A DNA stretch of 64,000 nucleotides, taken from Candidatus Omnitrophota bacterium. GTDB taxonomy: Bacteria > Omnitrophota > Gorgyraeia > Gygaellales > Profunditerraquicolaceae. Both the position numbers and the translations under genes were made by a program. The stretch is taken from positions 78,932-142,931 of the forward strand of contig JAUSED010000005.1 in NCBI GenBank assembly GCA_030650425.1, given 5' to 3'. The notes beneath the pieces are model-generated. The model saw only the letters and a program-made list of their open reading frames with translations. It searched no databases and was not told the origin of the DNA. How positions within the stretch are numbered: the first letter of the stretch is position 1; every line of letters begins with the position of its first letter. Below are positions 36,001 through 64,000 of the stretch, in pieces.

Positions 36001-39000
36001 TTCGGGCAGGTAAAGATGCTTACGATATAAAAACAATCAAGGAGGCGCGCAGAGCGGAGAAAGAAATCGTGGATACTCATCTCTGGCTGGTTAAGTTAGC
36101 GGCTATCCGGTATTTAAGAAATATTCAAGGGGTTAAAGAACCGGAGGTTAATCCGTATCTGGGCGATCTTATGCCTAAAGGGGTTTCAAAATTGCTCGAT
36201 ATTATCAGGATCTATGCTTATAAAGACAGGCAGTTTTCTGAAGATGAAATAATAGATGAGCTTGTGGCATTTTTCACGAAAGCGCTTTATGAAGACTCTA
36301 CGGTTTATAGAAAAATCACTTATGTGGAAGCCGCGCGCGATGATTCGGATGAGGCCGGCGATCTATCAGAAATAACAAGAAGTATGGCCGCGGTTGATCA
36401 TAATGCCCCTGATAAGATACTTGAAGACTTGGAAGCGCTGCCGTTAGACGAGGAGGACGCTTTGATCCAGCATAACCTATTGAGCCCTTACATAGATGCC
36501 ATAAAAGATTCTGCAGTAAGGCAGGTTGTCACTTTGGCTTTTCAGGGTTTAAGTATGGAATTTATTACGCGGCGAACCGAACTGAACGAGAAAGAGATCA
36601 ATCAGTATTTAAAACAAGGCGGCCAAGAGATCCAGAGCTTAGCCGGTTTAAAAGATTACGCGGCAGCGGCGAAGCGCAGTGCCTCGCCGGTTTCGGCGAA
36701 TAGGTCCATAGCCTCAAGCCCGGCTAATTCTCCTTCGACAATAGAAAAGATAACTAAAGAGATTGCCAACGCGCTTCAGCTAAGCGGTATTAAATCTCAA
36801 CTAGTTACTCTAGAAGGGCTATTTAATTATTTTAAAGAAGATTATCCCCAATTATTAGAGCCCGGCCGATCAAAAGAAGAGAAGTTCTGGTTATTGTGTT
36901 TGGGTTTTTTTAAGCTTGAAAATATCTTTATGCTGGAATGCGATTTAGGAGGGAAAATTCTTGAACTAAAAAATGAAATCCTGCTTAAGATGAAGAGCCT
37001 GGAAGAATCATTGCTCTCTAGCTATAGGGCCTTTGAGGTGGTTGAGTATTTTAAGCTGGGCTATGAAAATTATCCTTTTGATCTTAAGCGGTTAGAACAC
37101 GAGTCAGGAAAAGAATTCTTTGAGCTTCCTCAGAAACCAGAGAAAAGGGTTTTTGCGGGCGGGTGGGAAAGGCGGTATGCGCAGAAACTTTCTTGTATTT
37201 TCGCCAAGGAGCTACAAAGGGAATGGGAAAGGTTATCGCTTAAGAGAGATTACACCTTAGCGCCTCTTTATACACTCAGCGTAAATGAATTTATAGGAGA
37301 TACTAGGCAGTTTATACATCCTGCGAATTTTATTTACTACGATATGTCATTGTTAGATCCAAATAAAGGGATTACTGAAGCAAGGATTAAACAGGATATG
37401 ATCCTTAGTATTGCCTCTATGGATATTTATTTAGAATGGATAAGCCGGCATTGGGATTCCGACTTAATTAAACAAAAAGGATATACTTGGGAGAAAAATA
37501 GGATAAGCCTGAAATTCATAGAAAAAAACCAATCGCCTAACCTTTCTTTGTTTGGTAGAGCCCTTCCCCCTGTTAAGCTGAGGCCGTCTTACCGTATATT
37601 AAAAAATTTGACTGATGCAGAAGCGCTGGAGATTATATGTGGTACTCGGAGCGATGTTGGTTCTCCTCTAATTAGCCGGGAGCCAATGCGTACAGTTATT
37701 CCTGAAATACAATCTGTCGCTTCGCCGGTTTCAACGCTGGCCAAGGCTATTGGCAGTATTATATTTAATCTTTATTTAATATTTACTGCGCCTATTTATT
37801 CCACTCATCAATTAGTTTATGCGCGGATGCCTTCACAAGGTATTTTAAATATAGTTACAAGGCCAGTGGTTAGACGGTTTGAAGTTTTAAAACATCCGGA
37901 ATATAATGATTCCTTTTTGAATGCCGAAGACTGGCTTAAAGAAGGCAATAAGGATTTTGCGGTGCGGTTTTATTTACTCGGATTCCTTCAAAAGGCGGAA
38001 GTTATGGATTTACCTAATTTCTTAGAAGGCGCAGTAACCCTGGCTCAAGTTGAGGAGTTTATGGCTGGATACTTAGAATCCGTGTTGGAAGGCCTTGAGA
38101 ACTGCGTCGATCCGGTTAACATAGCCCCAATACAGGACTGGATCATTGAGCTTAAGATAGAGGCTTTGAATACTTCCAAGCGGCTATTGTCAAAAGAAGA
38201 TAAAACAAGGATTAGGATAGAATTCATTAAAAGATTGCATCAGCTTGAAGAAGGGCTAAACATAAAATCTCGTCCGCCACCGAAGGATAGAGACACTAAC
38301 CGCGCCCCCGGCATCTTCCCAAATATTGACTGTAGTTCATCCAGCCCTACTTCTTTCTTGCATCAGAATGATGCTAAGGATATCTATTTTAAAATTTGTA
38401 CCAATAATGATGTATTAGCTTATCGGGAACAGATTATCAGCCTTGCAAAGCCGGAGTTCAGTTCTACATATTGGGCTGAATTTATCGAAGACAGCTTTGA
38501 AAGCAAATCAGCGTTGTTTATCCTTATGTTTTCTAAAGAAGAGCTGATAGGTTTGGTTTTAACGCGTGACGGGCAAGATAGCGAGGAGGCATTCATTACG
38601 GCGTTTGTATTAGGCAGCCTCATCAGGCACAATGGTTATGGAATAAAAATATTCAGGACAGCCATCAAAGCGCTTAAAGACAGGAAATATACCTCTCTTT
38701 TTTTGATAACTGAGGAAGAGGAATGTATGAGAGGCCTGCTTGAAAGATTAAGGGCGTCGGCTGATATTATTAATTTAGAAGGCGGCAGGCCGGTTAGCGA
38801 TTACCAGTCATTCGCCAAGTGGTTTAGAGCCTATTTTCCTGGCAGCCCATTACCTAATGGCCCCGCCGCCTCGCCGGTTTTGGGAAAAATAGAGCCGTCC
38901 CCTATTTCGTCTTTGGCGATAGGGATCCTTAAAGAAGCCAAGGAACGGCTTAAGGAGTTTTTGGTGTTAAAAGTAGTTGTGGTTGGCATAATAGCAGCTG

Positions 39001-42000
39001 GAGTTATATTGGTAGCTATAGCTTATCTTTTTTCATTTATATATCGATTTTTCTATTTCTTTCTCAGAGATGCTCCAAGGCCGAATCTTGTTGAGCAGGC
39101 TAAGTCAAGAAGAAACAGCAAGAGACAAGATAAAGGAAAATTTTCAAGCTCTCTGGGAGCCATCGGAGCCTTTAGGGAACTTTTTAGCATAGATAATGAA
39201 GAGGTGCCTCTTGAGAAGATCCCAAGATTGATGAATAAGAAATGGGTAGATGAGATTGAAAAAGGCAACAGAATTATTGATGTGAAGACGAGGACTCTTG
39301 TTGTCCTAACAGTGCCATTTAATGAAATAGCCGACTTAAATATAGAGTTGAGTACTTTAGAGGTTGAAAGCTGCACAATGATTAGTTTCAGGGGTAGAGA
39401 TAGAGAAGGGAATATGGTTTTGGGGTTAGGCCATATTTTTGAGCCTGCGCGTAAACTGCAAGATTTTTCAGTTTTTGTTGTCCGGGCCCTATTGTCTATT
39501 CTCAAGGCTAGAGGCGTACATGAATTAGGCATGCTTATCCGTTATGACCCAATTTTCACCCAGCTCCCTAAAGAAATCATCAAAGGATGCAAGCATTTAT
39601 TCAAGAGGCCGGCTATAATTTTATCGAGAGAGAACAACTTAGTGGAAGATGTTATCGTTACTCCAAGAGGGGTAACGCGGGCCTTATACCAATATATAGT
39701 ATATGAAAGTGCCGGCCGTGGTTTTATTAGTCGAGAAAAAGTTGTAACTTTGTTTTACAATTGGGGTACCTTTAACACTGCCGCTTCGCCTATGCATACC
39801 CCGGATGAGGATAATAAACGAATATTTATTGAAGTAAATAACTTATTTAAGCAGGGCCGATTTAGAGAGGCCGTGGGCAAGTTGAGAGAGTTATTAAGTT
39901 ATCCTCTCGTTAATTTGGACAGGGCAAAGGCTTTGCATATGCTGGGAAGTGCCTTTATAGGATTGAAAAAGCCTTACACTGAAACAATGTTCTGTTTGGA
40001 TTCAGCCTTGCGCTTACTTAAAATTGATAACGTCCAGACACAAGAGTATTTGGATTTAGAGCTAGACATTAGTTTGGGGTTGGGACTTACGTATAATAAA
40101 TTAGGGCTTCCGGATAAAGCGCTTGGATGTTTCGAGAAGATAATAGAAGGATGTAACGACAAAGACATGCTTGATGCCGCGCGTCAAAGTATGCTGGAAG
40201 CTTATTTGATTAAGAAAGATTTTCCTGTTTTCTTTGATAAATTAGGCGATTATTTAAGCAGTAATTCAAATATAGATATAAGAGATATGACCTCCGTCTA
40301 TATCCTTGTGAATAGCTACCACCGTTATTTGGATGAGCATATCGATGAGGCAGGGATCCGGGGGGTTATTTTACTGGCAGAATTTTATTTCAGGCGCGCG
40401 GAAGAGTTATTAACCAAAGAAAAGATAAAGAACCATTCAGAATTTGACCTTTATCAGGCAGGAAGGGTTACCGCTGGTTTTGCTTTTATTTTCCTGCATC
40501 TTTACGCAAACAGCGATGTTCTGCGGGATAGGCACATCGCGTATTATTATAGCGGCAGATGCCTGCTGCATATAGCATGGTTTAAGGAATATTATTTAGC
40601 CAATGTGAATATAATTTTTTCCGCAGAAGGCCTAGAGTTAAATTTGGAGAATATGAAAGAAGTTTTGTCATTGGCAAGCGATTATCTGCTGGATGCCATA
40701 TTGATTGCGGAAAACGATGCTAAAGGCTCCGACGTAAGCTTTGTGAAAAAGGTAAAGGCTACCTTTTACGCGATATCTAATAAATTGAACTCTTTCGGGA
40801 TTTCATCTAGCCCCTTAGATGACGATAATCATAAATTTGAAATATTGCCTATGTTTTTATTAGTATCGCAAGGCGGTTCCGCCGCCTCGCTGGTTTCGGA
40901 AGAAGGGGGAGTATTTATTTCTTATCCTTCATCGGTTGAAGAGAAAAATCAATCCGTTAGTTCATCCATCACTGCGGCAGAGATAGCTGGCATATTCCTT
41001 GAAAGAAGCTGGCTTTCTATTTTTCCAGCAGCTCTTTTCTGGGCAGGTTATTATTTGTTTAAACTTCGCAAGAACATTGAATCTCAAAAAACAAGTTTTA
41101 ATTATTTATCCGTAAATAGCCAAAAGCTCTTCGATTTCAGGAGATTAATCCCTCAAGATAAAAAGGAGGTAATTATCTTGGCATCAATAGCCCTGATAGG
41201 GCTTACCACTATTGTTTTTCCAAGCCTATGCAGGGAGATTATACAGCTTGGCCAAGTAGTTAATCATCATCATATCTGGAAACTTCTTAATTATATTGTT
41301 GGAACGACAGCTGTAATGCGGGCTATTATGGTAGGAAGCAGAACGTTTTTATTTTCCGGAATATATTTCTTTTCAATGATAATATTTTCAGCTTTATGCT
41401 CGGTCTTTATCTTAAATAATATAACCTTATACGCTTATGAGTGCATTTTTGGCAACTTTAAGGCCTTTTTAGTCTTTATGGGAGCATTTTTCATAAGCGA
41501 TATTGTTGCTATGTTCAATAGGTTGATTTATAAAAAGGAGACAATAGGAAAGAAGAATGGTAAGCATTCATTAGGCGATAAAATTAACAGTAACGAAGCA
41601 AGTCCTACTAAGGAAATAAATTCCGGGACCGGCGCAGCTCATAATGTTAAGATAGCTCCGTCTTCTACCCGAACCAAGGCCAGCCAAGAGTTCCTATTGA
41701 GATATCTCCAAGAAACGAAAGAAAAGATAAACCGAAAGGGCCAAGATTCTAGTTCGCCTTTAGAAAATAAAGTTAATTCAGTAAATAAAATGGATGGCTC
41801 TATTTTGCCAAAAGACAACCCCGCCGCCTCGCCGCTGGCGGAAGAAATTGCGGATTGTAAAGTTACGATGGCCGGCTCATCCAGCCCTATTGACAATCCT
41901 GAAGCCTGTAACATTAATGCCGCTGAGATTATGCATAGCTCTATCCTTATGTTTTTAATTGAAAACCCTTATAAAGAGGTTAATCGGGTAAAGTTAAGCA

Positions 42001-57000: not shown

Positions 57001-60000
57001 GCCCGCGGCCAATAGCTTTTGCGTTTAGTTATAAAGGATTAGTTCTGTATTTAGAGGAACCGTATCTTGCTTATTATTTATACCCTTGGTTTATGCCTGT
57101 AGTCAGAGTGATTCAAGAGATCTCCGGCTGGAGAAAGGCAAGAGACCGCGCGAAAGATTCTCTTCCGCAAAGCGAAGCAGCTTGCGGCGGATTAATTCCG
57201 CAGCGTATTGAGTATAGAGATGGGGCCGCCTTGCCGCCGGGATCGCATATCGTCGTCTACGAGGAGAATGGGAATGTAGACGTTGTATATAGCCCATTGT
57301 TTAACAAAGGGTTACAAAACAAATCTTTAGGATATCAAGATGGCCCCGCCGCCGGCACTGAGCCTAATCGAAGCGCCTCGCCGGTTTCAGGAGAGACAGA
57401 ATTATCTTCGGCTTCCGCATGCCTTAGCCCCGCTAAATCCCGCGATAGCCCTAAGGGGAATAAATTCTTAACCTTAACTTCTGCTTTTCTTATTTTTCTT
57501 ACCTCCTTCCATCTTTACCTTAGTCCTTTGCGGGCCTATGCTAACCTTAAGGTTAATCTAAGCGTAATCACGCCCCAAGCGTCACAAGAGCGCCAAGAAA
57601 CCGAAGAGCTTTATAATCAGGCAAGCAGGCATCTAAAGAATCAAAAATACCAAGAAGCGCTGGATCTGTATATAAAGTTAATTAAGCTAGCGCCCAATTA
57701 TATAGATGCCTACATTGACAGGGCCTATCTTTATATCCACCTTGCTCAAGAAGCAAAACAAACAGGTAAAGATACAAAAGGCCTTAGGAAGAACAGAGAC
57801 AATGCAATGTTGGATTTAAAGAAGGCTGAGGCGCTTACTTTAAAGGCCATAAAAGAGAAATACTTTACTAAAGAAGAAGGCAATTTGGTATTTGCCTCAA
57901 TCTATAATCACTACGGATTATTTTATTATCACCTTGAAGGTGATTACAAGAAAGCAGTTAGTTATTTTGAGCAGGCCATAGGCTTAGAGCCGGATAACCC
58001 GATAAATCATAATGATTTAGGGGGAGCCTATTTTAAGTTAGGTAAATACGGCCTTGCCGAAGAGGCATATACTAAGGCAATTGATAAAGCAAAAGCCGCC
58101 AAAGACAATTACGCGGGTTCCCGCATTTACGCAAACCGCGCATTCTTAAGGTTTAAACTCGATAGATATAAGGCGGCAAAGCAAGACATACAGGAAGCCA
58201 CTAGTTTAAATCCCAATTTAAAGAATGATAATAATATCCAAAATTTATTAAAGGAGATTGAATTGAAACTTCAAGAGCGAGAAGGGGTTATTGATTTGTC
58301 TTATCTAAAACTCAATAACTCCAATATCCTTCAGCAGGCTTCCTCGCCGGTTTCGGAGAATAGAAGGGGACAGTTCTATCGTAACTGTTCATCGGCTATG
58401 GAGATAGACAGAGACGGTCTGGAGGATTCTAAGGAAGCGCTTATCGCGCCTTTGCAACATCCCTTAGGCAGGCATTTATATATAGGTACTGATGAGGAGC
58501 GAGACTTATCTAAATGCAGGCAATTGTTATTTGCAGCTTGTCTTGAACTTAGGATATGGAAGAAGCGATATTATTTTGAGCAAGTTGAAAACAGGATATG
58601 CAAGGATCCTTCGTTTCGGACAAAAATAGGCCTTATTGTCTTATTGCGCGATATCCTGCTTAATTATGACGCTTCTAACGTAACGGTTGCTTTTGTAGAC
58701 AGGCTTGAGGGTATTCCGGAAGAACTGATATCGTTCCTTTTAGATGACGAGATCTTATCAGCTTATTTGAATTATCAAGATGAACTTCGAAAATATAAAT
58801 ACATGGATGATAGGGCTATCGAAACTGGCTTTTTCCCATTTTATTATCTATGGTCAGCGTATAAACGCGGGGAAATGCGTGATGCCAAAGAACTCAAAGA
58901 GAGAGTTGTTAGCATCCTTAAGGGTTTTGGCTATGATAAAGCATTCTTCAAGCTCCTAAATGACTTAGCGCATAAGAAAAAGGCGGATTTTAGCCTTGAT
59001 AGCGGCGCAGACGAATTGCGGGTTTTCTTTAGGGCCTTATCCCGTAAAGATATCGTTGAGATTTTTAGACAGACCTTATCAACTCAGATTCTGCCTTCTG
59101 TTAAAAGGCATAGAGCTTCATCTGTAATACAAGGTACCGCCTCGCCGCTGAAGGAAATTGGATCAGAAACCCAAAGAGAAGCAGCCAGGGGAATGATGGT
59201 CATTGAATTGCCCGTGGATGCCGACTTGGGCGAGATCATAAATCACAAAATTGTATATGTTAAGAATGACGGGAATATTAGCACGATTAATGAAGGAAAT
59301 ACAATTAAACTACTACATCCTGATGGGCTAGAATGGAATCTTAGCTGCAAGGTAAGGGATTATCTAAGAGCTACATTTAGCTTAGATTACTCTCTCCTAG
59401 GATTAAAACCTCATCCCTCAACACTTGGAGCGATATGGGCAATGGAAAGGTATCCTACCAATAATCAGCAAGTCCTTGACGCGGGTTGCGGTGAAGGGGT
59501 TTTCACGATTTTGGCGGCTAATTTAGGAGCGAGTAAGGTTATAGGCGTTGATTTAAAAGATTTCATTATTGGACTCGCAAGAAGAAATGCTGAATTAAAT
59601 CGCTTAACTCATATTATTGAATATCACAAACAGGATTTCACAAAACCGTTACAACTATCTGTAAATAACATCAAGTTTGACAAGATCATAACTAATATAC
59701 CCTGTGGTTATACTTATATGGTTCCATCTTTATTGAGGCTTTATCCGGAAGTCAAAACCTTTATTTGGGCAGGTGATTACGTTCATCAAGAAGGCCGCGA
59801 GTATATCGTGGAGGGATCAGAAGAATATATTAGGGAGATTCAGGCATTAGGATTTCGATTCGTAGAAAAATTGATTATTCCTCAAAGAGGTTTGTTTTAT
59901 CCAGAAATTATTATTTGGAAGTGGGTGACATATATCTTAAAGCGGGAAATTAACGAAGCAGGCGCCGCCTCGCCGCTGGGGAAAAATGATCAAAATATCC

Positions 60001-63000
60001 TTATCCCTGAAATTATTTCTGAAGCTATTGCAGAAGAAGTTCAAAGAATGCCGGCTTGGGAACTTTTATCTGTTTTAGATCTCAAAAAGGCCAAGCTACT
60101 TTTTACTAAAAGCGGTCCTAGAGAGCTTACTGTCCACAAGATTAAAGTGCCAAAGCTTGTAAATAAGTATAAAGCGCCAGAGGGTTTAAGTATTCTGCCG
60201 TATGAACTTTTTGATACGACAGAATTTGAACTTTTATACAATAAAAAAGGATACCTTATCGCGATTTATCCGGTTCTCCCAAACGGATTCCTGATTAAAT
60301 CTGGCGAACGACTCCCTCACTATTTTGATTTTAGTGAATATTATTTTAAAATTCCGGAATTCGGTGATCCGAAAATGATTGAAAAATGGGATGCCTTCGT
60401 AAAGGATGTCGGCAGAGATCGGGAAGCAATACAGGCTTATGAGGATTTAATCGGGATAAAGGGTAAGCTTGAAAGGCGCCCGCGTTGGGTACCTTACATC
60501 TACGCAAATCTTGATTATCGGGATAATTTTCCATTTGCTCGGGCTTTTTACATTGAGATGTTTAGCCGTTTGATTAAAAAAGATGAAATCTCGAATAAAA
60601 TCTCTAGAGACATAATCCGGTCTATTCTTCCTGTTTTTCCGACTGTTTACCATCCGGGATCCCATTTATTGGATGATTGGAAATACATTTTAGCTGTTAC
60701 CAGGCGTCTTGATATCCAAAAAGACCATGATATTTTGGTTGTTGGCCCGGGGAATGGCCTTGACACTTGGTTTGTTTCTCGGCAAACAAGGCGGAAAATT
60801 TATGTTGCGGGAATTAATCCTTTGGAAGTTGCCAATACCAGGGCTGTCGCAAAAATTGCCGGGTTTAAGATAGAAGCCAGGATTTACGACAACATTATTT
60901 CTAAAGACGGCGTGACTGTCTTTAATAAGAGATTTGATCGGATTATCTGGAATATGCCCACATATTATCCGGTTGCCCCTAGAATCCGGGAAAGCCTTGA
61001 AGAATGGGAAGATAATGATTACGACGGTATGATCTTAAGGCGTTTTGCCGGAGGCCTTCCATTACTTCTTAAACCAAATGGAATTGCTTTGGTTTGGAAT
61101 TCCGCTGCCGGAAAACTTTTAGATGAGGTTGAAGAAATCTTAAAAGCAAGAGGAGCGCTAGATGTGGCAGTCGAAAAATACCCGGGTATGACGTATTTAG
61201 CCAATATCGAAATGGGCACGGAAACCATTCCTACCGCGCTTTACTTTATCCGCAAGGGAAAAAATCCGGATGCAGCAAGCGCCTATTGTGTCAGTTCGCC
61301 GCTGAAAGAAATAGTTGGAGCGACGGTGGTGACGCGAGGCGCCGCCTCGCCGGTTTCGGGGGGAATATTCCTAACTATATTATGGCCTAAAGACGGTAAT
61401 ATCTTTAATGCGCTCAAAATCTCTGTCATTAGTAGCGATATTCCTAATCTTGCGGATTCTCATAAGAGCAAGATTGAGGGCATCGTTTGTCAACAAGCCG
61501 GATTGCTTAATGATCAATTGGGCAGTATCAAAGACACTTTCATTCAGCGGCCATATCTTGATGTTCAGTTTAGGGATACTATTTATGGCTATATGACACT
61601 TACTGAGTTCTTTGGTTATTTGCGGATGGGATTTAAGGTAGGAGACAGCTTTATGGGAGGATATATTGTAGATTTCTATGGTTTCGGCAATCATAAGACG
61701 ATGCAGAAGCTCAGCGACTACAATAACAGAAGTATAAGCAATTATTTCTTTTTGCTCGCAGCGCTGAAGAAAATTGGTGGCGTTATCATTGATGCCCAGA
61801 AAGTGGTATATAAATATATTGGAGTCAACGAAGATTTTTTTACCGGATTTGACTTTGGCGAGCATCTAATTATTCAAAGGGCTAAAGTTAGGGGATTCAG
61901 CAAGTATCTTAGCAATGCCGCGTTTAATATGTATGATAGCGCGAGTAACTTCAGTGGTGGTTTTAGGCAACTCAAACCTTATTTCTATCCTCTGATGTTC
62001 GGCAAGGGGAACCTTGGAGAGCGGGCGAATGACCCCTCGTTCATAAATTCCCAGTATAGTCTTAGTCATATTTTTTCTCCTTCTAAAAAAGTATACCACG
62101 CTCTTAACGGGGTTGTCAAGAATATTAGTCTTGCCGCCTCGCCGATAAGGATCTCTCCATTTCTCAGTGACATATTTAGAATGTTTCATATGTTTGAGGT
62201 AAATGAATCTATTTTAAGCGAAGACGGGAAAGAGGCGCAGCAGTGGGTTAAGAAAATCATTGGCACAATGCAGAGGCCCCCTGTCGGCCTTATTACAAAT
62301 AATAATGCAGAAAAGCTCATAGCGCTTATGCCTAATCCACGGAAAATATCTCTCGGTGGTTGGTTTGATCTTAGCAGCCTCAATTTTGGAAGCGATGATG
62401 AATTTGGCTTTGGTTGTTTAAGGCCTTGCCCGCATTGTTCAGAAGGGAATACAAGAGCGCGGGTAACAAATCGCACGCTGCCGCCTGCAATAAAGCTTAT
62501 TGAAGAGATGCGCAAGGAAGGCCAGCAAGATACGTTAAGAGGCCTGAAAACTTATCCCGGAAGGTTTCTGATCCAAGGGTGGAATAACACCGACCTTTTC
62601 TATTGGTGTGATCCTTTCTTTAGAGTCTATTTAGACGGCCTTATTGAATTTATCGCGCGTCATTACAAAGATAGAAAATTCCGCCTGCGGATAGCCACAA
62701 TCGGCCCAAACATAGATGACTGGCGCGCATTTATCGTAGCAAAGAGTATTGACAATCTGGTGCTTCAATATCCTGAGTTAAGAAATAATATATTTAGTCT
62801 ATCCTTGCATTTGGCCTTATTTAGCACCAGAGGGTTTGATTATAATACTATCTCTGCTTTGTATGAGCGCAAGATAAATCCACAGCGGCTGGCTAAGGTT
62901 ATAGATAACTATGTGGCCCGCTACGCAGCTATTATTGGCGTTCTCAAGAATACGCTAAGAACGGTCAAAGTATTTCTGTCAAATGAAAGCAGTGAATTTG

Positions 63001-64000
63001 ACTCTCTTACGCTTACTGTATTAGATAGGGTCTTAGAGAGGGTCAATATCAGTGGTGGCTTAAAACAGAAGATTATTGATGGAGTAGCTGCAAGAGAACT
63101 AAACAGTGATGTAATGACCCCGTACGGCTTTACTGTAAAAAGCGCTAACATTACGCCATCCGGCCACCGGGGGTTTGATTTTGTAATTGGGTTATTCAAG
63201 CTTGCAGGCAGATGGAAAGAAGCTGAACGTTACAAGAGGGCTCAAGCAGTAATGAACTTCGCTCCATACCGCAGTAATTATGTCCCAGAAGATGGGTACC
63301 CTCAAACCATAATTTTACCGGGAGAAAGAATTATTGTTCAAAACGAGAAAAGAGAAATGTTTAAATTACCTCTGCAACAACTCGATCCTGATGCTGAATT
63401 TCTTGCCCGCTACGGACTACCTGACAAAAAATCTATAACTAAATATTTATCTTCAAGCCCATTGGCCGAAGTCGCCGCCTCGCCGGTGATAAACAGGCAA
63501 TCCATAACTTATGAAGAATTTGCCGATGATAAACTAGTCAGATTATTACAAAGCGCATCAGAAGAAGAAGTATGGGAGGGCATAATTCAATCCTTAGAAA
63601 AGCCAAGTCTCACTAAGAAAGAGGTGTCGGTAATTTTTGAGAATATTGTAAAGATATGTTATATGGAATATGGATATTACAGGTTCTCCGGTTTTTACTC
63701 TAAGGAGAAATTCCGCGAATTTTTTAAGAGGCTATTAGCATTTAAAGAGGAAATAACCGAAAGGATATTTGTAAATGAAGAAATTAAAATTCTATTCAGG
63801 AAAAGAATTGAAATTCTGAACAAAGTTTTAGATCTATCTGCGGCCGTTCCTTATGAGGTAATTCACTACCAAAGAGAGGATAGGATCATTCCTAAAGACA
63901 CCGATGGTTATTCTTTACCTTTAGCATTTTTAAGAATAATAGCTTTGACTATTTACGATACGTTGAAGGTTAATTTGACAAATAAGGTGGTTGCTATGCA
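1..64000 (+). CDS. Internal fragment of one giant stop-free ORF (21,332 codons in the window, truncated at both edges), encoding a mosaic multi-module protein
   Basis: In the phase with codons at 3,6,9..., my by-eye translation pass from 3 to 63998 met no stop (selected stretches were checked codon by codon). The ORF track lists only three short plus-strand ORFs, all in other phases, as expected if this frame never closes in the window. Recognisable protein domains occur in this phase along the whole length. Confidence 0.9.
3..269 (+). other. C-terminal part of a CheA-type histidine-kinase ATPase (HATPase_c) domain
   Basis: The translation VKDDGKGINKEKIIKRAEELGFI..QQILNLIFLPEVSEAKDSREGTGIGLATIKKSIEAVCGQINVKSKTGQGTQFSFSLPC matches the DDGxGI, ILNLIF-PGFS, GxGxG and G-GT-F blocks of CheA-like kinases. 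Confidence 0.75.
1095..1745 (+). other. Alpha-amylase-family (GH13-like) C-terminal fragment, region IV onward only
   Basis: LLFAENHDERPALDAF resembles GH13 conserved region IV (FxxNHDxxR). It is followed by AAVIILSTEAHMLIPLAQIYG and a beta-sandwich-like tail (GDTIAVINYSDGREKVRIDL). The N-terminal catalytic regions are absent, and the module starts directly after the junction at about 1056. Confidence 0.35.
2990..3990 (+). other. RelA/SpoT homologue module (HD hydrolase-like plus (p)ppGpp synthetase-like domains)
   Basis: The HD part reads GKSFKSGETYFHHALAAAKTLL..AAFLHKL. The synthetase part reads AEIKSRVKSAYGMFEKISSGRR..ALKDILGTHII..KGYEAIHIDVEI, which matches the RelA_SpoT pattern (RxKS.S...K, D..G.RI, GY.S.H). 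I checked the translation codon by codon at 3660-3790. Confidence 0.75.
4890..5300 (+). other. CheR-like SAM-dependent methyltransferase domain
   Basis: IKVLCAEGVSHFKDGPKFFTASRLAILLRE..FDIYVVDTDMSALEQAAYGFYD..FDLITYFFKEYVL parallels the CheR pattern (RIWSAGCSTGEEPYS..ATDID..AL..A..G.Y..FDLIFCRNVLIYF). Confidence 0.55.
5610..6030 (+). other. Second HD (SpoT-type metal-dependent phosphohydrolase) domain
   Basis: AYELARQIHRGKKRDNGEPYLMHPIAVVDIF..ALIDHDVFEE matches the SpoT/HD signature (H.GQ.R..GEPY..HP..VA ... HD..ED). Confidence 0.6.
7293..7437. mobile_element. MITE-like 145-bp palindromic element inserted in-frame, flanked by an 8-bp direct repeat CACGATTC
   Basis: The terminal inverted repeats are GTAATGCGTCGGTCAATGGGGG (7293-) and CCCCCGTTCACTGACGCATTAC (-7437). 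The inner hairpin is GTCATTGCGAGCGAACGAAGTGAGCGAAGCAATCTC / GAGATTGCTTCGTCGCTGCGCTCCTCGCAATGAC. An identical CACGATTC occurs at 7285-7292 and at 7438-7445. Confidence 0.8.
8109..8228. mobile_element. Second MITE-like palindromic element (~120 bp) inserted in-frame, flanked by the direct repeat TTATTG
   Basis: ACTGTTGCGAAATG (8111-8124) is the perfect reverse complement of CATTTCGCAACAGT (8212-8225). The inner hairpin is CGTCATCCTGAGCGAAGCGAAGGATCTCG / CGAGATTCTTCGGCCTTCGGCCTCAGAATGACG. TTATTG occurs at 8103-8108 and at 8229-8234. Confidence 0.75.
8880..9060 (+). other. HEAT/PBS-lyase-like repeats
   Basis: LLLRIAKDSNHLIRKDLAVSLRQLLAHDIHAEILNELINDADREVREEALV fits the HEAT_2 pattern (d.d..vR..a..aL). 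Confidence 0.4.
9636..9708 (+). other. Internal signal-peptide / TM-like hydrophobic segment
   Basis: KLLAAFVFLAYLAASIFSPIVSRA|DSVQ lies about 35 codons downstream of the junction ISSSPI (about 9531). Confidence 0.5.
10760..11440 (+). other. Paralogous module copy A (unknown function; H-x-H motif), followed by a junction and a GerE HTH array
   Basis: LKEHYTEIIVALAMNFPSRIEP...IRYLQEMAGNFELQFCVVSPK..PLLIFSKEL...RFVPFASAVAHTQAYL...LEISWF aligns by eye with copy B at 31235-31985. Confidence 0.6.
11446..12345 (+). other. Three GerE/LuxR-type HTH units
   Basis: The three units read WTDRELEIWRLWAKGVDREAIGKALNEGERFIKRVISKIITKFNI, LSEREKKILWLFIAGYNPKAIALTLSLPEGILLSDILFAMKQKLRV, and LAPSELKLLQKILEGKKMKQI.... 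Each follows the LTxRExxVL..a.G...keIA pattern. Confidence 0.55.
15451..15537 (+). other. Internal signal-peptide-like segment with an AxA-type site
   Basis: GASPIRVMAAGIALITYLHLVLFTPVFA|AEQALKA lies directly after the junction NSSPLAEG (about 15414). Confidence 0.55.
16555..17420 (+). other. TPR repeat block
   Basis: Repeated W/Y..G..Y...G....A...Y..A motifs, for example LWIVVGNYYQNIGDAENAIRAYKEAVEV, WQLAGEIYYKLGDLNQARDAFAIS, and VRLGDIYYQQGDFKQAAKFYADALKSD. Confidence 0.7.
20540..21035 (+). other. GGDEF diguanylate-cyclase domain (GGEEF active site intact)
   Basis: [78 protein letters not shown]. I verified this codon by codon over 20520-20820. Confidence 0.9.
21525..22070 (+). other. RsuA/RluB-family pseudouridine-synthase-like domain, catalytic Asp motif lost
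   Basis: TEGLIILTNNPHLKERLQNNIISQPERYRVSIEGKVSEEDL...ILEIYFSRRGEREILVLFKNFGYSVKNITRTQIGLISPQDLKPGSYRRLKWNEI parallels T.GLLLLTNDG.L...L.HP.....K.Y.V.V.G......L ... L.EGRNRQVRRMF...G..V..L.R..IG...L.DL.PG..R.L. The position of GRLD reads TPAQA. Confidence 0.6.
22262..22900 (+). other. Protein-kinase-like fold module
   Basis: EGGFKRVYKIVLRS..FFVKVVKA (Gly-loop/Lys-like) and FADSKPENVIIHHKSQIGYRGTLIDMDNI (catalytic-loop D.KPEN and DFG-like DMD). Confidence 0.45.
22990..23200 (+). other. ThiS/MoaD-like beta-grasp module (tentative)
   Basis: IKIAINDKEVLVPERTTLLEILNDCYVDINTMDVELNGNLL resembles ThiS (I.vNG......g.Tl..LL........vAVe.NG.iv). There is no C-terminal GG. Confidence 0.3.
24790..25235 (+). 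other. TPR repeat block
   Basis: ANLLNDFGAICLDQGRYSLARILFEVGL.., HFQLGYVSYLLGEFNLAFAYFQTAKRLG, and GFNLVSICKELGDFDNALKEFQEMMQ. Confidence 0.6.
27500..27620 (+). other. HExxH zinc-metallopeptidase-like motif region
   Basis: VRIIIHEYVHYYSFYSPIMQSESFAEVFAE contains HEYVH with a downstream Glu. The assignment rests on the motif only. Confidence 0.3.
29190..29960 (+). other. Sigma-70-family-like module (region 2 and region 4 HTH)
   Basis: Region 2-like: IIRFNMGLIKKIIASYKV...LEDAAIFGAKIAALKYHPERGVKFMTFAWNVIKHEINKIL, compared with nlrLV..iA.ky...DL.QEG..GL..A...fd...g.kFsTYA.wwIr. Region 4-like: KDLFREVVCLE..DTADQFGFSIVAKQRGIKRQTVTKAYYLVLATLR. I verified this codon by codon at 29220-29460. Confidence 0.55.
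30232..31005 (+). other. Low-molecular-weight phosphotyrosine phosphatase / ArsC-like module
   Basis: IKVVFLCNGNRWRSAAMYLW carries the CX5R(S/T) P-loop (C-NGNRW-R-S). A DP-containing loop (ADVLDPDKKEI) lies downstream. Confidence 0.55.
31235..31985 (+). other. Paralogous module copy B, followed by a junction and an XRE HTH array
   Basis: LKEDYLDSLIKIIMAFPSNIDP...VRNIQELAGDFELQFTVIFPK..PLVVFSREL...RFVPFAFSVGHTHGLA...IELAWF aligns with copy A at 10760-11440. Confidence 0.6.
31990..33080 (+). other. Array of about seven tandem XRE/Cro-C1-type HTH units
   Basis: LKQTRRAMDLTQEELAERL.., LRESLGYTPAKLAKVIGYTEVDILHWENAEAWIP, LRQIREKMGLSQKELVNRLG.., LRKDLDYTKESLGRKVGYSRTSVAKWEKGLQNVP, LREFLGYRAEKLARELG..ILRWEEGKEWIP, LRQIRKEVMNLLQKEFGEKVGYSQNISIYLREKG, and INEELGLNITDLISLL... 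Confidence 0.7.
33630..34200 (+). repeat. Three tandem ~64-aa (~190 bp) repeats of unknown function
   Basis: Each unit contains (K/R)KY(R)KI(Y)RA..L...(E)WGFL(N/D)W.SAVKA.G..P. Examples are LRKYRKIRRAFLFLREKGFLSDWNSAVKATGGQP, IKDKYRKIYRAYLLYGIEWGFLNWASAVKACGAKP, and IKKRYPQLFISFIFCQEEWGYLDWSSAVRKTGNQP. Confidence 0.7.
35340..35900 (+). other. TPR-like repeat block
   Basis: AEQLLNDGQYAEAIKLFKQVV, AVDLFEQRNYGKAKGVWKKVL, and AKAYFISGKEHYLRGNYRRAINYFRKVLDV. Confidence 0.55.
36050..36660 (+). other. Second sigma-70-like module (weak region 2; region 4-like HTH)
   Basis: EIVDTHLWLVKLAAIRYLRN.. and AVRQVVTLAFQGLSMEFITRRTELNEKEINQYLKQGGQEIQSLAGL. The C-terminus is paralogous to 33370-33500 (RKVLYLALNHEDMDNIIRLTGLTQEEIDRHLIEGGEKIQKISGL). 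Confidence 0.4.
38400..38760 (+). other. GNAT acetyltransferase-like module
   Basis: AFITAFVLGSLIRHNGYGIKIFRTAIKALKDRKYTSLFLIT resembles GNAT motif A (V.p..rg.GiG..L.......a...g...i.L). Confidence 0.45.
38865..38876 (+). repeat. Junction 12-mer GCCGCCTCGCCG (Ala-Ala-Ser-Pro), perfect copy
   Basis: Exact match, codon-aligned (start divisible by 3). Context: GPAASPVLGK. Confidence 0.95.
38945..39065 (+). other. Transmembrane segment
   Basis: FLVLKVVVVGIIAAGVILVAIAYLFSFIYRFFYFFL. Confidence 0.6.
39822..40165 (+). other. TPR repeat block
   Basis: EVNNLFKQGRFREAVGKLRELLS, ALHMLGSAFIGLKKPYTETMFCLDSALRL, and LGLGLTYNKLGLPDKALGCFEKIIEG. Confidence 0.55.
40975..41530 (+). other. Polytopic membrane module (about 5 hydrophobic helices)
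   Basis: WLSIFPAALFWAGYYLF, VIILASIALIGLTTIVFPSL, FLFSGIYFFSMIIFSALCSVFIL, and FKAFLVFMGAFFISDIVAMF. Confidence 0.6.
41823..41834 (+). repeat. Junction 12-mer, perfect copy
   Basis: Exact match, codon-aligned. Context: NPAASPLAEE. Confidence 0.95.
43555..44340 (+). other. Radical SAM domain
   Basis: ITSKCNLQCAPCIAQ has the CX3CX2C motif at 43590-43613. It is followed by WFVGGEPSLYG (the GGEP motif) and IDTNGTF. Confidence 0.7.
45420..45900 (+). other. HEAT-like repeats
   Basis: IIQQIGGKRAARKLANIFNERDMSWQVKILDMVGTM, AVRNFNPEIVNEAVCGLRNLV, and DAVKLLTNL... Confidence 0.35.
46280..46990 (+). other. Calcineurin-like / PPP-family metallophosphoesterase domain
   Basis: VLVIPDIHCQ (DxH), IQIGDVISRGPE (GDxxDRG-like), LLGSHELL (GNHE-like), VVHAGV, and VGHSP. 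The motifs occur in the canonical order. Confidence 0.7.
49250..49660 (+). other. M48 (HtpX/Ste24-like) zinc peptidase module with following TM helices
   Basis: DAYGRASLSGNYITINPNQLGNPDFELAKLMGHEITHITLGH resembles NAfa.G...I.i..gL...l...El.aVlaHE.gHi...H. It is followed by IGFRVTTALFSILFAAMISGII and LLIAVVFLGTVLMCYLV. Confidence 0.65.
49950..50330 (+). other. PrmA-like class I SAM methyltransferase domain
   Basis: HTTTQSALLALERINITGKTVIDAGTGDGVLAIMMAK..AADF..LELAKENARLNGV..VDILVTNI. Confidence 0.6.
50484..50495 (+). repeat. Junction 12-mer, perfect copy
   Basis: Exact match, codon-aligned. Context: LAAASPVSQL. Confidence 0.95.
53085..53096 (+). repeat. Junction 12-mer, perfect copy
   Basis: Exact match, codon-aligned. 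Context: NPAASPLADK. Confidence 0.95.
53202..53700 (+). other. LOG / TIGR00730-family (Rossmann, PGGxGTxxE) domain, copy 1
   Basis: KVAVFCSAR..GYTIITGAGPGLMEAVGEGA..FVIIPGGLGTLDELLEALTL. The PGGLGTLDE motif was verified codon by codon at 53487-53513. Confidence 0.8.
53800..54300 (+). other. LOG-family-like domain, copy 2 (more divergent)
   Basis: AVGILGSHSF..ILYRGCQGITEAVDKAIE..LIFFAGGIGTLDILSDALCLIQ. Confidence 0.55.
54835..54896 (+). repeat. 62-bp double-junction repeat, copy A (SSPVEKTVGATVVTRGAASP)
   Basis: The 40-bp core AGTTGGAGCGACGGTGGTGACGCGAGGCGCCGCCTCGCCG (54857-54896) is identical to 61313-61352. The 22 bp upstream are similar, with several mismatches. Confidence 0.9.
54885..54896 (+). 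repeat. Junction 12-mer, perfect copy
   Basis: Exact match, codon-aligned. Context: RGAASPLGEW. Confidence 0.95.
55980..56230 (+). other. GNAT-like module
   Basis: GIIAFVRLKLRP..GAGFIVSPVIRQVKRYDTETLLMAVIQSIIEFSLQQLGRVRVWADPANRKMLDYILLFG. Confidence 0.35.
56380..56870 (+). other. Polytopic membrane module (about 4 helices)
   Basis: TVGLSIIISYALLVPVFDLYL, VWIMTFAFLLLAWKF, IIFYLTAFCPGIFLSLITTLSLATIF, and IFFSAVAVAFFSYYTHATAYFILVMLL. The module starts right after the junction GASSPL (about 56364). Confidence 0.6.
57456..58220 (+). other. Signal-peptide-like segment followed by a TPR block (resembles a stand-alone secreted TPR protein)
   Basis: KGNKFLTLTSAFLIFLTSFHLYLSPLRAYA|NLK is followed by YNQASRHLKNQKYQEALDLYIKLIKLAPNYIDAYIDRAYLY, YNHYGLFYYHLEGDYKKAVSYFEQAIGLEPDN, and NDLGGAYFKLGKYGLAEEAYTKAI. 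Confidence 0.6.
59400..59900 (+). other. PrmA-like class I SAM methyltransferase domain
   Basis: HPSTLGAIWAMERY..QQVLDAGCGEGVFTILAANLGASKVIGVDL..ARRNAELNRL..FDKIITNIP. Confidence 0.65.
59964..59975 (+). repeat. Junction 12-mer, perfect copy
   Basis: Exact match, codon-aligned. Context: AGAASPLGKN. Confidence 0.95.
60690..61230 (+). other. Class I SAM methyltransferase-like domain
   Basis: HDILVVGPGNGLDTWFVS..KIYVAGINPLEVANTRAVAKIAG..FDRIIWNMPTYY (an NPPY-like motif) ..LKPNGIALVW. Confidence 0.5.
61291..61352 (+). repeat. 62-bp double-junction repeat, copy B (SSPLKEIVGATVVTRGAASP)
   Basis: The 40-bp core at 61313-61352 is identical to 54857-54896. It lies immediately upstream of the antisense TA cassette. 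Confidence 0.9.
61341..61352 (+). repeat. Junction 12-mer, perfect copy (left border of the TA cassette)
   Basis: Exact match, codon-aligned. Context: RGAASPVSGG. Confidence 0.95.
61380..61865 (-). CDS. vapC: PIN-domain ribonuclease toxin (VapC-like), antisense to and nested in the giant ORF
   Basis: This is the 161-aa ORF in the track. The four PIN acidic positions occur in canonical context: IFVDSNIFIY, VVAELLHRL, LLTNDALNLALM, and ATNDRDFERI. Its ATG (61863-61865) abuts the TAG stop of the upstream small gene (61866-61868), a typical TA operon layout. Confidence 0.85.
   Translation of the reverse strand: MLAKVKSGKKIFVDSNIFIYHFLGINDNATNFLQRCEQKEIIAYTSVIVVAELLHRLMIAETIEIYNISSHKAVSYLKSHPQITKELSKCHIAINSIPKLNIKIWPLNESVFDTAQLIIKQSGLLTNDALNLALMRIRKIRNIATNDRDFERIKDITVFRP
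61866..62069 (-). CDS. Small antitoxin (AF2212/DUF104-like), 67 aa from the internal ATG
   Basis: MTKTILGIYERGVIRPLSKVPLAEHQRIEIRFELP matches the ..aiYenGvlkPlepl.LpEg.rv.i pattern of PIN-associated antitoxins. An AGGAG SD lies 7 nt upstream of the ATG at 62067-62069. The track ORF (107 aa) over-extends 5' across the promoter. Confidence 0.7.
   Translation of the reverse strand: MTKTILGIYERGVIRPLSKVPLAEHQRIEIRFELPKTTTEVTRAIIHIKRGIAKILAESPNFSPLNN
62077..62119 (-). promoter_or_regulatory. Sigma-70-type promoter plus Shine-Dalgarno for the antisense TA operon
   Basis: The minus strand reads TTGACA (62119-62114), an 18-nt spacer ending in TGG (extended -10 TGn), TATACT (62095-62090), TTTTTAGA, AGGAG (62081-62077), AAAAAAT, then ATG. 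Confidence 0.65.
62133..62144 (+). repeat. Junction 12-mer, perfect copy (right border of the TA cassette)
   Basis: Exact match, codon-aligned. Context: SLAASPIRIS. Confidence 0.95.
62400..63200 (+). other. Possible second radical-SAM-like module
   Basis: FGFGCLRPCPHCSEGN carries CX3CX2C at 62415-62438. No other motif is confidently recognised. Confidence 0.3.
63474..63485 (+). repeat. Junction 12-mer, perfect copy
   Basis: Exact match, codon-aligned. Context: EVAASPVINR. Confidence 0.95.

Follow-up and report, generated by a model that had tools for sequence, protein, structure and literature searches.

How can a gene of more than 60 kb be assembled from unrelated proteins and still be read in one frame, and why should its seams be spelled with the same DNA? 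These questions are raised by a stretch of 64,000 nucleotides (nt) from contig JAUSED010000005.1 of a Candidatus Omnitrophota bacterium (assembly GCA_030650425.1), hereafter called the window, which is filled from end to end by a single open reading frame (ORF). A preliminary description of the window had pointed to the 12-mer GCCGCCTCGCCG, found nine times at junctions between the modules of this giant gene, and had suggested for it a function or a history at the DNA or RNA level. Our analysis suggests that this word is the most faithfully preserved form of an in-frame recombination joint whose translation also provides a linker or processing peptide, a reading to which we give a probability of roughly 0.55.

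Frame 3 of the plus strand contains no stop codon, compared with 802 to 2021 stops in each of the other five frames, and the gene has a G+C content (GC) of 41%. The tripeptide [A/S]-S-P occurs 74 times in its translation, where approximately 8 would be expected, and in 65 cases the next residue is V, L, I or M. These joints split the frame into about 55 modules, each 170-1045 residues long, with short spacers inside double joints. More than 15 unrelated Pfam families are represented among the matches listed for the window, including HATPase_c, HD_4/RelA_SpoT, CheR, GerE, TPR, GGDEF, HTH_XRE, Aca2, GNAT, radical SAM, M48, PrmA-like methyltransferases and LOG. Most of them are found once, TPR and methyltransferase a few times each, and none of the listed domain matches spans a joint. 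The modules are whole proteins wherever this can be assessed, namely in a 442-residue module shared with other genomes and in the LOG module, where the fold of solved proteins of 210-217 residues begins 6 residues past the joint at 53085. Module duplication as the source of the identical joints was rejected, as only four paralogous module pairs were detected in the window, all of them weak.

All nine copies of GCCGCCTCGCCG were recovered by a recount at the reported positions (Table 1). They lie on the plus strand only and in frame 3, each encoding A-A-S-P, and dinucleotide shuffles of the window produced no copy. Nine of the 13 AASP peptides are spelled in this way, whereas the probability of the spelling given AASP is 0.0018 from the codon usage of the gene outside joints. 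When synonymous codons were shuffled with the protein sequence kept, the expected numbers were 0.04 for GCCGCCTCGCCG, 0.32 for GCCTCGCCG and 12.6 for TCGCCG, where the window has 9, 15 and 41, respectively; of the 41 TCGCCG, 36 are in frame. The identical spelling thus exceeds what peptide selection would give, as had been claimed, and points to a role or history at the DNA level. Sites with at most two mismatches to the 12-mer number 32 versus 2.8 expected, 30 on the plus and 2 on the minus strand, and include the near copies noted earlier at 40881, 43380, 48006, 49227 and 50817. Two longer variants had also been listed. GCCTCGCCGCTGG is exact at 41826, 53088 and 59967, while GCCTCGCCGGTTTCGG is exact at 36681 and 61344 only, the other two reported sites, near 57375 and at 58341, being one-mismatch copies. 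In-frame decayed copies occur besides the one listed in Table 1 at 50817 (AASA), 57225 (AALP) and 49716 (SGSP).

The quality of the joints rises along the gene. A joint has on average 5.6 mismatches to the 12-mer within the first 8 kb and 1.8 within the last 8 kb, 5' and 3' joints differ in their closeness to it (Mann-Whitney P = 0.004), and the chance that all nine 12-mers fall in the 3' part of the window is P = 0.002. The 5'-to-3' gradient of the preliminary description is therefore real, though partly a matter of the peptide, with Ala in place of Ser before S-P in 18 of 39 3' joints versus 6 of 35 5' joints.

The constraint can be followed codon by codon. Drawn as a sequence logo, the 74 joints give nCC-nCC-TCG-CCG-nTn, each synonymous third position carrying 0.5-0.7 bits. 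TCGCCG spells 34 of the 74 joint Ser-Pro pairs versus 2 of the 59 other Ser-Pro pairs in the gene. TCG encodes the Ser of S-P in 44 of 74 joints, but a Ser one codon earlier in only 1 of 50 cases; of 45 joint Ala codons, 37 are GCC and one is GCG, and joint Pro is CCG in 46 of 74. Outside joints, GCC makes up 26% of Ala codons, TCG 9.7% of Ser codons, where it is the rarest, and CCG 28% of Pro codons. The synonymous sites of the joint are hence constrained far beyond the need of the peptide, and the joint spelling is a sequence motif, not a broad taste for rare or GC-rich codons. GC-biased gene conversion was rejected because particular bases are preferred, not G or C generally (TCG 44 versus TCC 3, CCG 46 versus CCC 6, GCC 37 versus GCG 1). 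Two further candidates failed: a programmed frameshift with nearby termination, as stops in the +1 frame one codon past the joint are as frequent as any V, L, I or M codon gives (27% versus 31%), and internal translation starts after the joint, as ATG, GTG or TTG follows in 16 of 74 cases versus a 17% background.

Relatives of the gene were found by an exhaustive profile search with 999 window residues as the query, which returned many proteins of 1.5-7.8 thousand residues with a methyltransferase-like module. The DNA of ten such proteins was compared, together with one locus from a genome scan (L001), and S-S-P joints were found in seven loci (L001, L009, L010, L011, L015, L016 and L017). A single cassette of the window, the methyltransferase-like module of 442 residues, is shared with four of them, at amino acid identities of 74% (L009), 69% (L010), 58% (L001) and 35% (L011). 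These four match window residues ~19990-20450 only, bar one or two weak matches (25-42% over 38-147 residues); for L009 the one other match in the 64 kb is 25% over 147 residues. The cassette is a complete protein, aligning with residues 22-425 of a protein of 463 residues. Its free-standing homologues have 454-527 residues and are encoded in ordinary cytochrome operons.

The edges of the homology coincide with the joint core. The DNA of the window and of L009 is alignable from the TCG CCG of the upstream joint and ceases to be so right after the TCG CCG of the downstream joint. At the upstream edge the window reads ...GGC GCC GCC TCG CCG CTG GGG AAA AAT GAT CAA AAT ATC CTT and L009 reads ...GCT AGT TCT TCG CCG GTG GGG AAT GAT GAT CAA AAT ATC CTT. 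In L010 the homology likewise begins at the TCG CCG of the upstream joint. Cassettes are accordingly joint-bounded units, with the homology of the two closest relatives starting at one TCGCCG and that of the closest also stopping at the next, and neighbouring cassettes differ in every genome compared. From the shared module to the C-terminus there are about 220 residues in L001 versus about 3200 in L009. As PilZ genes follow the giant gene in both, the two are the same locus, and the differing position of the module within it indicates that cassettes are gained and lost at joints faster than a cassette diverges.

A second line of evidence comes from a 780-nt cassette between the perfect 12-mers at 61341 and 62133, which holds a complete toxin-antitoxin operon on the minus strand (Table 1). 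The coordinates of the antitoxin end at 61866 and the toxin ATG starts at 61865 on the same strand. This order, a PIN toxin preceded by a small antitoxin gene with a predicted promoter upstream, is that of a type II operon of VapBC-like kind, as predicted from the gene sequences. The predicted promoter has 11 of 12 consensus matches, with TG before the -10 box, and abuts the reverse complement of the 12-mer. Both genes are codon-aligned with the giant frame. The codons TTA, CTA and TCA are absent from the 22 Leu and 14 Ser codons of the two genes (16 Leu and 11 Ser codons in the toxin gene), whereas TTA and CTA together make up 42% of the Leu codons of the giant gene. Owing to this absence the giant frame stays open across the operon, with no stop in the 780 nt versus 9 and 33 in the other two plus-strand frames. 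Synonymous resampling of both genes gave a mean of 11.3 stops in the giant frame, and none of 3000 resampled versions was stop-free. The plus-strand translation of 61353-62132 has no recognisable domain. A cassette therefore need not supply a useful part of the giant protein, and the continuity of the giant frame is itself under selection. The direct repeats flanking the cassette consist of the 11-12-nt joint alone.

The same arrangement was found in the distant L015 (CP070797.1, a complete 1.5-Mb genome, GC 0.37), where a HEPN-MNT pair lies on the minus strand in 850 nt between copies of GCCTCGCCG at 23281 and 24142. Resampling gave 7.8 expected stops in the giant frame and no stop-free version among 5000. 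The annotated gene of 6905 residues in this genome stops at 22716; a GCCTCGCCG joint follows 8 nt later in another frame, which then remains open for at least 664 codons (region 22600-24718). The order past the annotated stop is an ASPV joint, a GGDEF module, a second ASPV joint, the antisense HEPN and MNT genes, an AASPV joint and the next module. The L015 giant gene may thus be much longer than annotated, with an intervening frameshift that is real or stems from a sequencing error. Antisense operons placed between joints mean that the joint bounds cassettes whatever their content or strand.

The spelling of the joint is conserved in several of the relatives. TCGCCG is used in 11 of 13 joints of L009 (0.039 expected per joint) and in 5 of 8 joints of L001 (0.021 expected per joint), where it is found in none of 12 other Ser-Pro pairs. 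All five joints of L010 follow AGY TCN CCG, and GCC TCG CCG spells 6 of the 9 ASP joints of L015 (binomial P 4e-6). L011, L016 and L017 have weaker or different spelling dialects. The full GCCGCCTCGCCG is also present in L001 (at 3233) and in L015. Whether the core is a genome-wide word was looked at in the flanks of relatives only: inside the L001 giant gene CTCGCCG occurs five times, always on the plus strand, while the 9.3 kb of ordinary genes beside it have none on the plus and one on the minus strand.

Giant proteins of other lineages with the same methyltransferase-like module (proteins P0016, P0017, P0027, P0034, P0053 and P0058; loci L008, L012, L013 and L014) have different joint peptides. 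Codons vary freely at the R-S-E-L-R joints of one lineage (21 sites) and the G-F-G-A joints of another (10 sites). In a third, with the joint D-x-A-M-L-T, 4 of 5 sites follow GAC NNN GCG ATG MTG ACG, and a further lineage has three D-G-F-G-P-G-T-P joints (G-P-G-T-P). D-G-G and G-T-S/T-P were also seen as joint peptides in other-lineage giants. The free codons at R-S-E-L-R and G-F-G-A imply that the joint peptide has a function of its own and that DNA identity is not class-wide. The joint peptide is hence lineage-specific and selected as a peptide, and the fixed DNA spelling is an extra property of some lineages, that of the window included.

Taken together, these data lead us to the following model. 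The core of the joint is (C)TCGCCG, extended to GCC-GCC-TCG-CCG-(G/C)T, and whole-gene cassettes would be joined, gained, lost and swapped at this joint within a giant cassette-array gene. The crossover would take place inside the core, whether catalysed by a dedicated site-specific enzyme or driven by short homology. Because every joint is a direct repeat and has the same codon phase, the frame survives whatever is exchanged, deleted or inserted from joint to joint. The core would be intact where recombination was recent, while old joints would decay at synonymous sites, and such decay would explain the looser spellings toward the 5' end. The peptide A/S-S-P-V/L/I would be the translated joint, itself selected, and is probably a hinge or a proteolytic processing site that separates modules, junk antisense translations included. 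A module with an M48-type peptidase motif (Table 1), the only recognisable protease in the window among the Pfam matches listed, is the sole in-window candidate for a protease that cleaves at joints. Embedded toxin-antitoxin operons would penalise deletions between repeated joints, as in chromosomal integrons.

The preliminary description had named three histories for the 12-mer, of which a recombination or attachment site is the best supported, in view of the breakpoints at the joint core and the antisense operon between two perfect 12-mers. Gene conversion between junctions can be seen in one case, a 40-nt linker that is identical at 54857-54896 and 61313-61352 between unrelated modules and points to DNA copying between joints. 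Recent module addition is insufficient alone: the module between the 12-mers at 59964 and 61341 is old (55-77% amino acid identity), and the spelling is found in very distant genomes as well.

Several observations weigh against a recombination joint. Selection that retains only those rearrangements in which a processing site is preserved would also place breakpoints near joints. The breakpoints come from one cassette only, in the comparison of the window with L009 and L010, the tails of L001 being no longer alignable, and no excised or polymorphic cassette was observed directly. No recombinase, transposase, integrase or resolvase family is among the Pfam matches listed for the five chunks that cover the 64 kb. 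No inverted repeats flank the joint, and its conserved DNA spans no more than about 12-15 nt, which is little for RecA-dependent homology or for a site-specific recombination site of the classical kind. Folding of the 109 nt around each of the 74 joints is not more stable than expected at matched GC (residual +1.7 kcal/mol). Moreover, about 40% of joints keep the peptide without the DNA core, their S-P being spelled roughly at background, and the codon freedom at the R-S-E-L-R and G-F-G-A joints described above belongs to the same side of the balance.

The main rival is selection at the codon level, by which GCC, TCG and CCG would slow or tune the ribosome at module boundaries and so aid folding or cotranslational cleavage, with DNA identity as a by-product. 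The motif is indeed strictly in frame and on the coding strand, its spelling is kept in distant genomes, and TCG is overused at joints although it is the rarest Ser codon elsewhere. In model bacteria the three codons are each read by a minor dedicated tRNA, and X-Pro bonds form slowly. However, neither GCC nor CCG is rare in this gene, the Ser adjacent to that of S-P avoids TCG, the spelling is missing from 40% of joints, and no codon is preferred at the joints of the R-S-E-L-R and G-F-G-A lineages. The third positions two and three codons upstream of S-P are conserved whatever the amino acid, and these should lie outside the ribosomal E, P and A sites. Translation also leaves the exact homology breakpoints and the motif-flanked antisense cassettes unexplained, and we consider it an improbable source of the motif. 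The breakpoints are equally unexplained by a signal in the RNA, in which a protein or small RNA would bind or cut the GC-rich word of the very long mRNA, or RNA polymerase would pause there and let ribosomes catch up, a need that would grow with distance from the promoter. Such a signal agrees with a strand-specific, GC-rich motif that recurs every 0.3-3 kb in a gene of 41% GC and strengthens toward the 3' end. It is made quite unlikely by the joints themselves, where RNA hairpins were ruled out by the absence of excess folding energy once GC is allowed for, known RNA families by the absence of an Rfam match, and where start codons are not enriched and the consensus contains no Shine-Dalgarno-like sequence.

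A passive history needs no function at all: the joints would descend from one linker copied at each module addition, the latest at the 3' end, and their identity would reflect youth. The 5'-to-3' gradient, the in-frame copies with a broken peptide and the identical pair of 40-nt linkers can all be counted for it. Against this, the cassette between the perfect 12-mers at 59964 and 61341 is old, with only 30 of 81 four-fold sites identical to L001, and the same spelling is present in genomes whose shared cassette is only about 35-40% identical. Furthermore, the Ser of S-P is an AGY codon in 16 joints, and no path of synonymous changes leads there from TCG, so these joints are not simple decay from one template. 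The passive account is accordingly unlikely. A generic genomic repeat of the repetitive extragenic palindromic (REP) or DNA-uptake-sequence type that falls in the gene by chance is far less plausible. DNA uptake sequences are short, frequent words that within genes have preferred frames and lie in poorly conserved linkers, but 30 of the 32 near copies are on the coding strand, 36 of the 41 TCGCCG are in frame, the 9.3-kb flank of L001 has a single CTCGCCG, on the minus strand, and the three L015 copies past the annotated stop proved to be joints of a continuing frame. As for an assembly or sequencing artefact, we found nothing in its favour and regard it as negligible, since misassembly does not produce a stop-free frame of 64 kb and these joints recur in six assemblies that different projects produced independently.

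Table 1. Coordinates of the giant frame, its perfect joints and the cassettes discussed in the text (window positions).
Feature	Positions	Strand	Remarks
Single uninterrupted ORF, 21,332 codons, open at both window ends	3-63998	+	Chain of about 55 unrelated modules
Perfect 12-mer joint GCCGCCTCGCCG (A-A-S-P)	38865-38876	+	
Decayed in-frame copy GCCGCCTCGCTG	40881-40892	+	Reads A-A-S-L (peptide broken)
Perfect 12-mer joint	41823-41834	+	
Module with M48-type zinc peptidase motif (HEITH), then hydrophobic membrane-like stretches, then PrmA-like methyltransferase domain	49239-50495	+	
Perfect 12-mer joint	50484-50495	+	
Perfect 12-mer joint	53085-53096	+	Directly before the LOG module
Perfect 12-mer joint	54885-54896	+	Ends the 40-nt linker 54857-54896, identical to 61313-61352
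Perfect 12-mer joint	59964-59975	+	Contains, as TCGCCG (59970-59975), the upstream breakpoint of homology for the cassette common with L009 and L010 (also with L001, N-terminal tail no longer alignable)
Shared cassette, 442 residues, methyltransferase-like whole protein	59976-61301	+	Ends in AGT TCG CCG at 61293-61301, the downstream breakpoint
Perfect 12-mer joint	61341-61352	+	Left edge of the antisense toxin-antitoxin cassette
Complete toxin-antitoxin operon, 780-nt cassette between the 12-mers at 61341 and 62133	61353-62132	-	Giant plus-strand frame open throughout
PIN-domain (VapC-like) toxin gene, codon-aligned with the giant frame	61380-61865	-	Pfam PF01850, E 3.2e-15, 57 bits, profile 1-118 of 120
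AF2212-like antitoxin gene, 67 residues, directly upstream of the toxin	61866-62069	-	Pfam PF01954, E 1.3e-8
Putative expression signals	62077-62119	-	-35 TTGACA (62119-62114), 18-nt spacer, -10 TATACT (62095-62090), Shine-Dalgarno AAGGAG (62082-62077) 7 nt before ATG
Perfect 12-mer joint	62133-62144	+	Right edge of the toxin-antitoxin cassette
Perfect 12-mer joint	63474-63485	+	Second half of the double joint SSPLAEVAASP

Joints are often paired or tripled 8-30 residues apart (SSP-x-AASP), for example at 10536/10569, 41751/41826/41880 and 63453/63477, and also in 54810-54896 and 61293-61352. A double joint after the shared cassette is found in L001 as well (SSPVGNEATAASP). A tandem-repeat search of the window gave nothing relevant.

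The small PilZ-domain genes downstream of the giant gene are located at L001:11932-12682 and L009:12753-13753, so that the 3' neighbourhood is conserved. Beyond them, L001 has an Opp-type transporter and a class II aminoacyl-tRNA synthetase; these ordinary chromosomal neighbours indicate that the element is chromosomal and not obviously a phage or plasmid. In L015 a gene of 7587 residues lies head to head upstream of the annotated gene of 6905 residues. The C-termini of P0018, P0022-P0026, P0031, P0034, P0035, P0053 and P0058 apparently share the same domain across dialects, ending in ...[F/L]-x-[A/K]-A-A, which suggests that the cassette arrays end in a shared cap.

One 1.5-kb groundwater contig of low coverage (1.9x; L018:409-1377) carries a gene closely similar to that of the PIN toxin. 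The gene is antisense to an open plus-strand frame, and 12 nt separate it from an AVSP joint with the spelling TCGCCG; beside it lies another small gene on the minus strand (84 residues). In the window, ten of twelve further minus-strand ORFs of at least 110 residues (those at 17715-18086 and 19769-20101 were left out), plus a 238-residue ORF at 54671-55387, gave no Pfam match, and three of them no NCBIfam match either. The modules 40815-41606 and 56370-57383 show the lowest purine skew in the window (~0 versus a mean of +0.09), resembling the antisense toxin-antitoxin cassette. They have no long or aligned minus-strand ORF, and the former contains the decayed joint AASL. Both could be degraded antisense cassettes.

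Homologues were also sought by other routes. A word-indexed protein search with four window modules gave no match, and the same search with the shared module returned free-standing proteins only, missing the giant relatives. The genome scan yielded one relative (L001), the metagenome scan only L008, a protein of 3767 residues without S-S-P joints, and a viral scan no match. Four consecutive modules at 54897-58349 (1151 residues) had no relative among 5.8 billion clustered proteins in a word-indexed search, which for another module missed giant relatives. The GNAT module has no relative by sequence among solved structures.

The window gene belongs to a recognised class. Multi-enzyme giant proteins of Omnitrophota and other bacteria of the Planctomycetes-Verrucomicrobia-Chlamydiae (PVC) group exceed 10,000 residues and consist of many distinct Pfam families tiled with none dominant (bioRxiv 10.64898/2026.06.07.730766; 10.1101/2023.11.21.568195). 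The window gene fits this description in its length and in its more than 15 families, none dominating, among the matches listed, and shares with the class the methyltransferase, HATPase_c, GNAT, HD, radical SAM and HEAT/TPR families. Post-translational cleavage has been suggested for giant PVC proteins, with the cleavage points stated to be unknown (10.1101/2023.11.21.568195). The terms 'linker', 'junction', 'recombination' and 'cleavage' have no occurrence in bioRxiv 10.64898/2026.06.07.730766, and we noticed no mention of a joint motif, a DNA-level joint, joint-bounded exchange or antisense genes in the frame in either preprint. Literature searches for a described joint motif or a similar bacterial polyprotein found nothing.

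The nearest functional analogue is the sedentary chromosomal integron array, such as the Vibrio superintegron, which likewise holds unrelated gene-sized cassettes, nearly all in one orientation, with a directly repeated site at each edge and a content that differs between relatives. Integron arrays carry toxin-antitoxin cassettes with their own promoters in either orientation, which are thought to stabilise the array against deletions, and embedded toxin-antitoxin cassettes are seen here as well, PIN/AF2212 with its own predicted promoter in the window and the HEPN-MNT pair in L015. The differences are considerable. Integron cassettes are separate, mostly promoterless ORFs, whereas those of the window are fused in one frame without start or stop codons, and an antisense cassette must be recoded to stay stop-free. 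The attC site is an imperfect palindrome of 57-141 nt with RYYYAAC/GTTRRRY cores, whereas the joint is a coding sequence of about 12-15 nt without excess folding, and no IntI gene or attI site was seen within the 64-kb window.

In the polymorphic toxins CdiA (VENN) and Rhs (PxxxxDPxGL), a short peptide motif marks the point of in-frame cassette swapping, and that of Rhs is also a site of self-cleavage, a single motif thereby acting as DNA breakpoint and processing site alike. These toxins have a conserved core, one variable C-terminal toxin and an immunity gene, whereas the window has 74 joints and about 55 unrelated, mostly housekeeping or signalling modules, no core is conserved between relatives, and the giant gene is followed not by an immunity gene but by PilZ genes in L001 and L009, with the transporter genes next in L001. 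Viral polyproteins, like the window gene, string complete proteins together in one frame, with a short peptide that recurs between them; window modules match free-standing proteins from end to end, and the motif is lineage-specific (S-S-P, R-S-E-L-R, G-F-G-A, D-x-A-M-L-T, G-P-G-T-P), as with co-evolving proteases. Cleavage at the joint is putative here, unlike in viruses, the sole protease-like module among the Pfam matches listed being of M48 type, and we know of no viral cleavage sites kept at synonymous positions. Whole folding units are also exchanged at phase-compatible boundaries, without frameshift, when exons are shuffled through introns of the same phase and when modules are swapped in polyketide synthases and nonribosomal peptide synthetases. 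Unlike in exon shuffling, there are no introns and the joint itself is translated. A shufflon (Rci) works by inversion between inverted repeats, whereas all joint copies are direct repeats on one strand; REP and uptake sequences are scattered through a genome on either strand with little regard to gene or frame, whereas 30 of the 32 near copies in the window are on the plus strand. On balance, we incline to the view that the arrangement lies outside the known kinds, its recombination mechanism being inferred.

A bolder version of the recombination joint can be put forward tentatively. Giant genes could be the product of a dedicated in-frame, integron-like platform, in which a site-specific system captures, inverts, excises and reshuffles whole genes at a 12-nt coding joint and so assembles polyproteins of tens of thousands of residues; the joint would then be used once more, as a processing site particular to the lineage, while embedded toxin-antitoxin operons, antisense and recoded, would keep the array in place. 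We hold this to be possible and rather doubtful as a whole.

Both giant-gene preprints (10.64898/2026.06.07.730766; 10.1101/2023.11.21.568195) leave open how bacterial genes as long as 60-440 kb come about and whether the encoded proteins work as a single chain. On the origin the joint offers a concrete, testable answer, in which a fixed in-frame DNA joint would link whole genes. A recombinase, should one take part, would lend itself naturally to building multi-enzyme fusions in frame. The joints are also the first candidate cleavage points for such giants, which eases proteomic tests and the splitting of the proteins for structure prediction. Twice independently, a recoded toxin-antitoxin operon keeps the opposite strand stop-free over 260 codons, a rare and clean case of selection for frame continuity across an antisense gene. 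Turnover in these arrays is so fast that genomes with a 74%-identical shared cassette have no neighbouring cassette in common.

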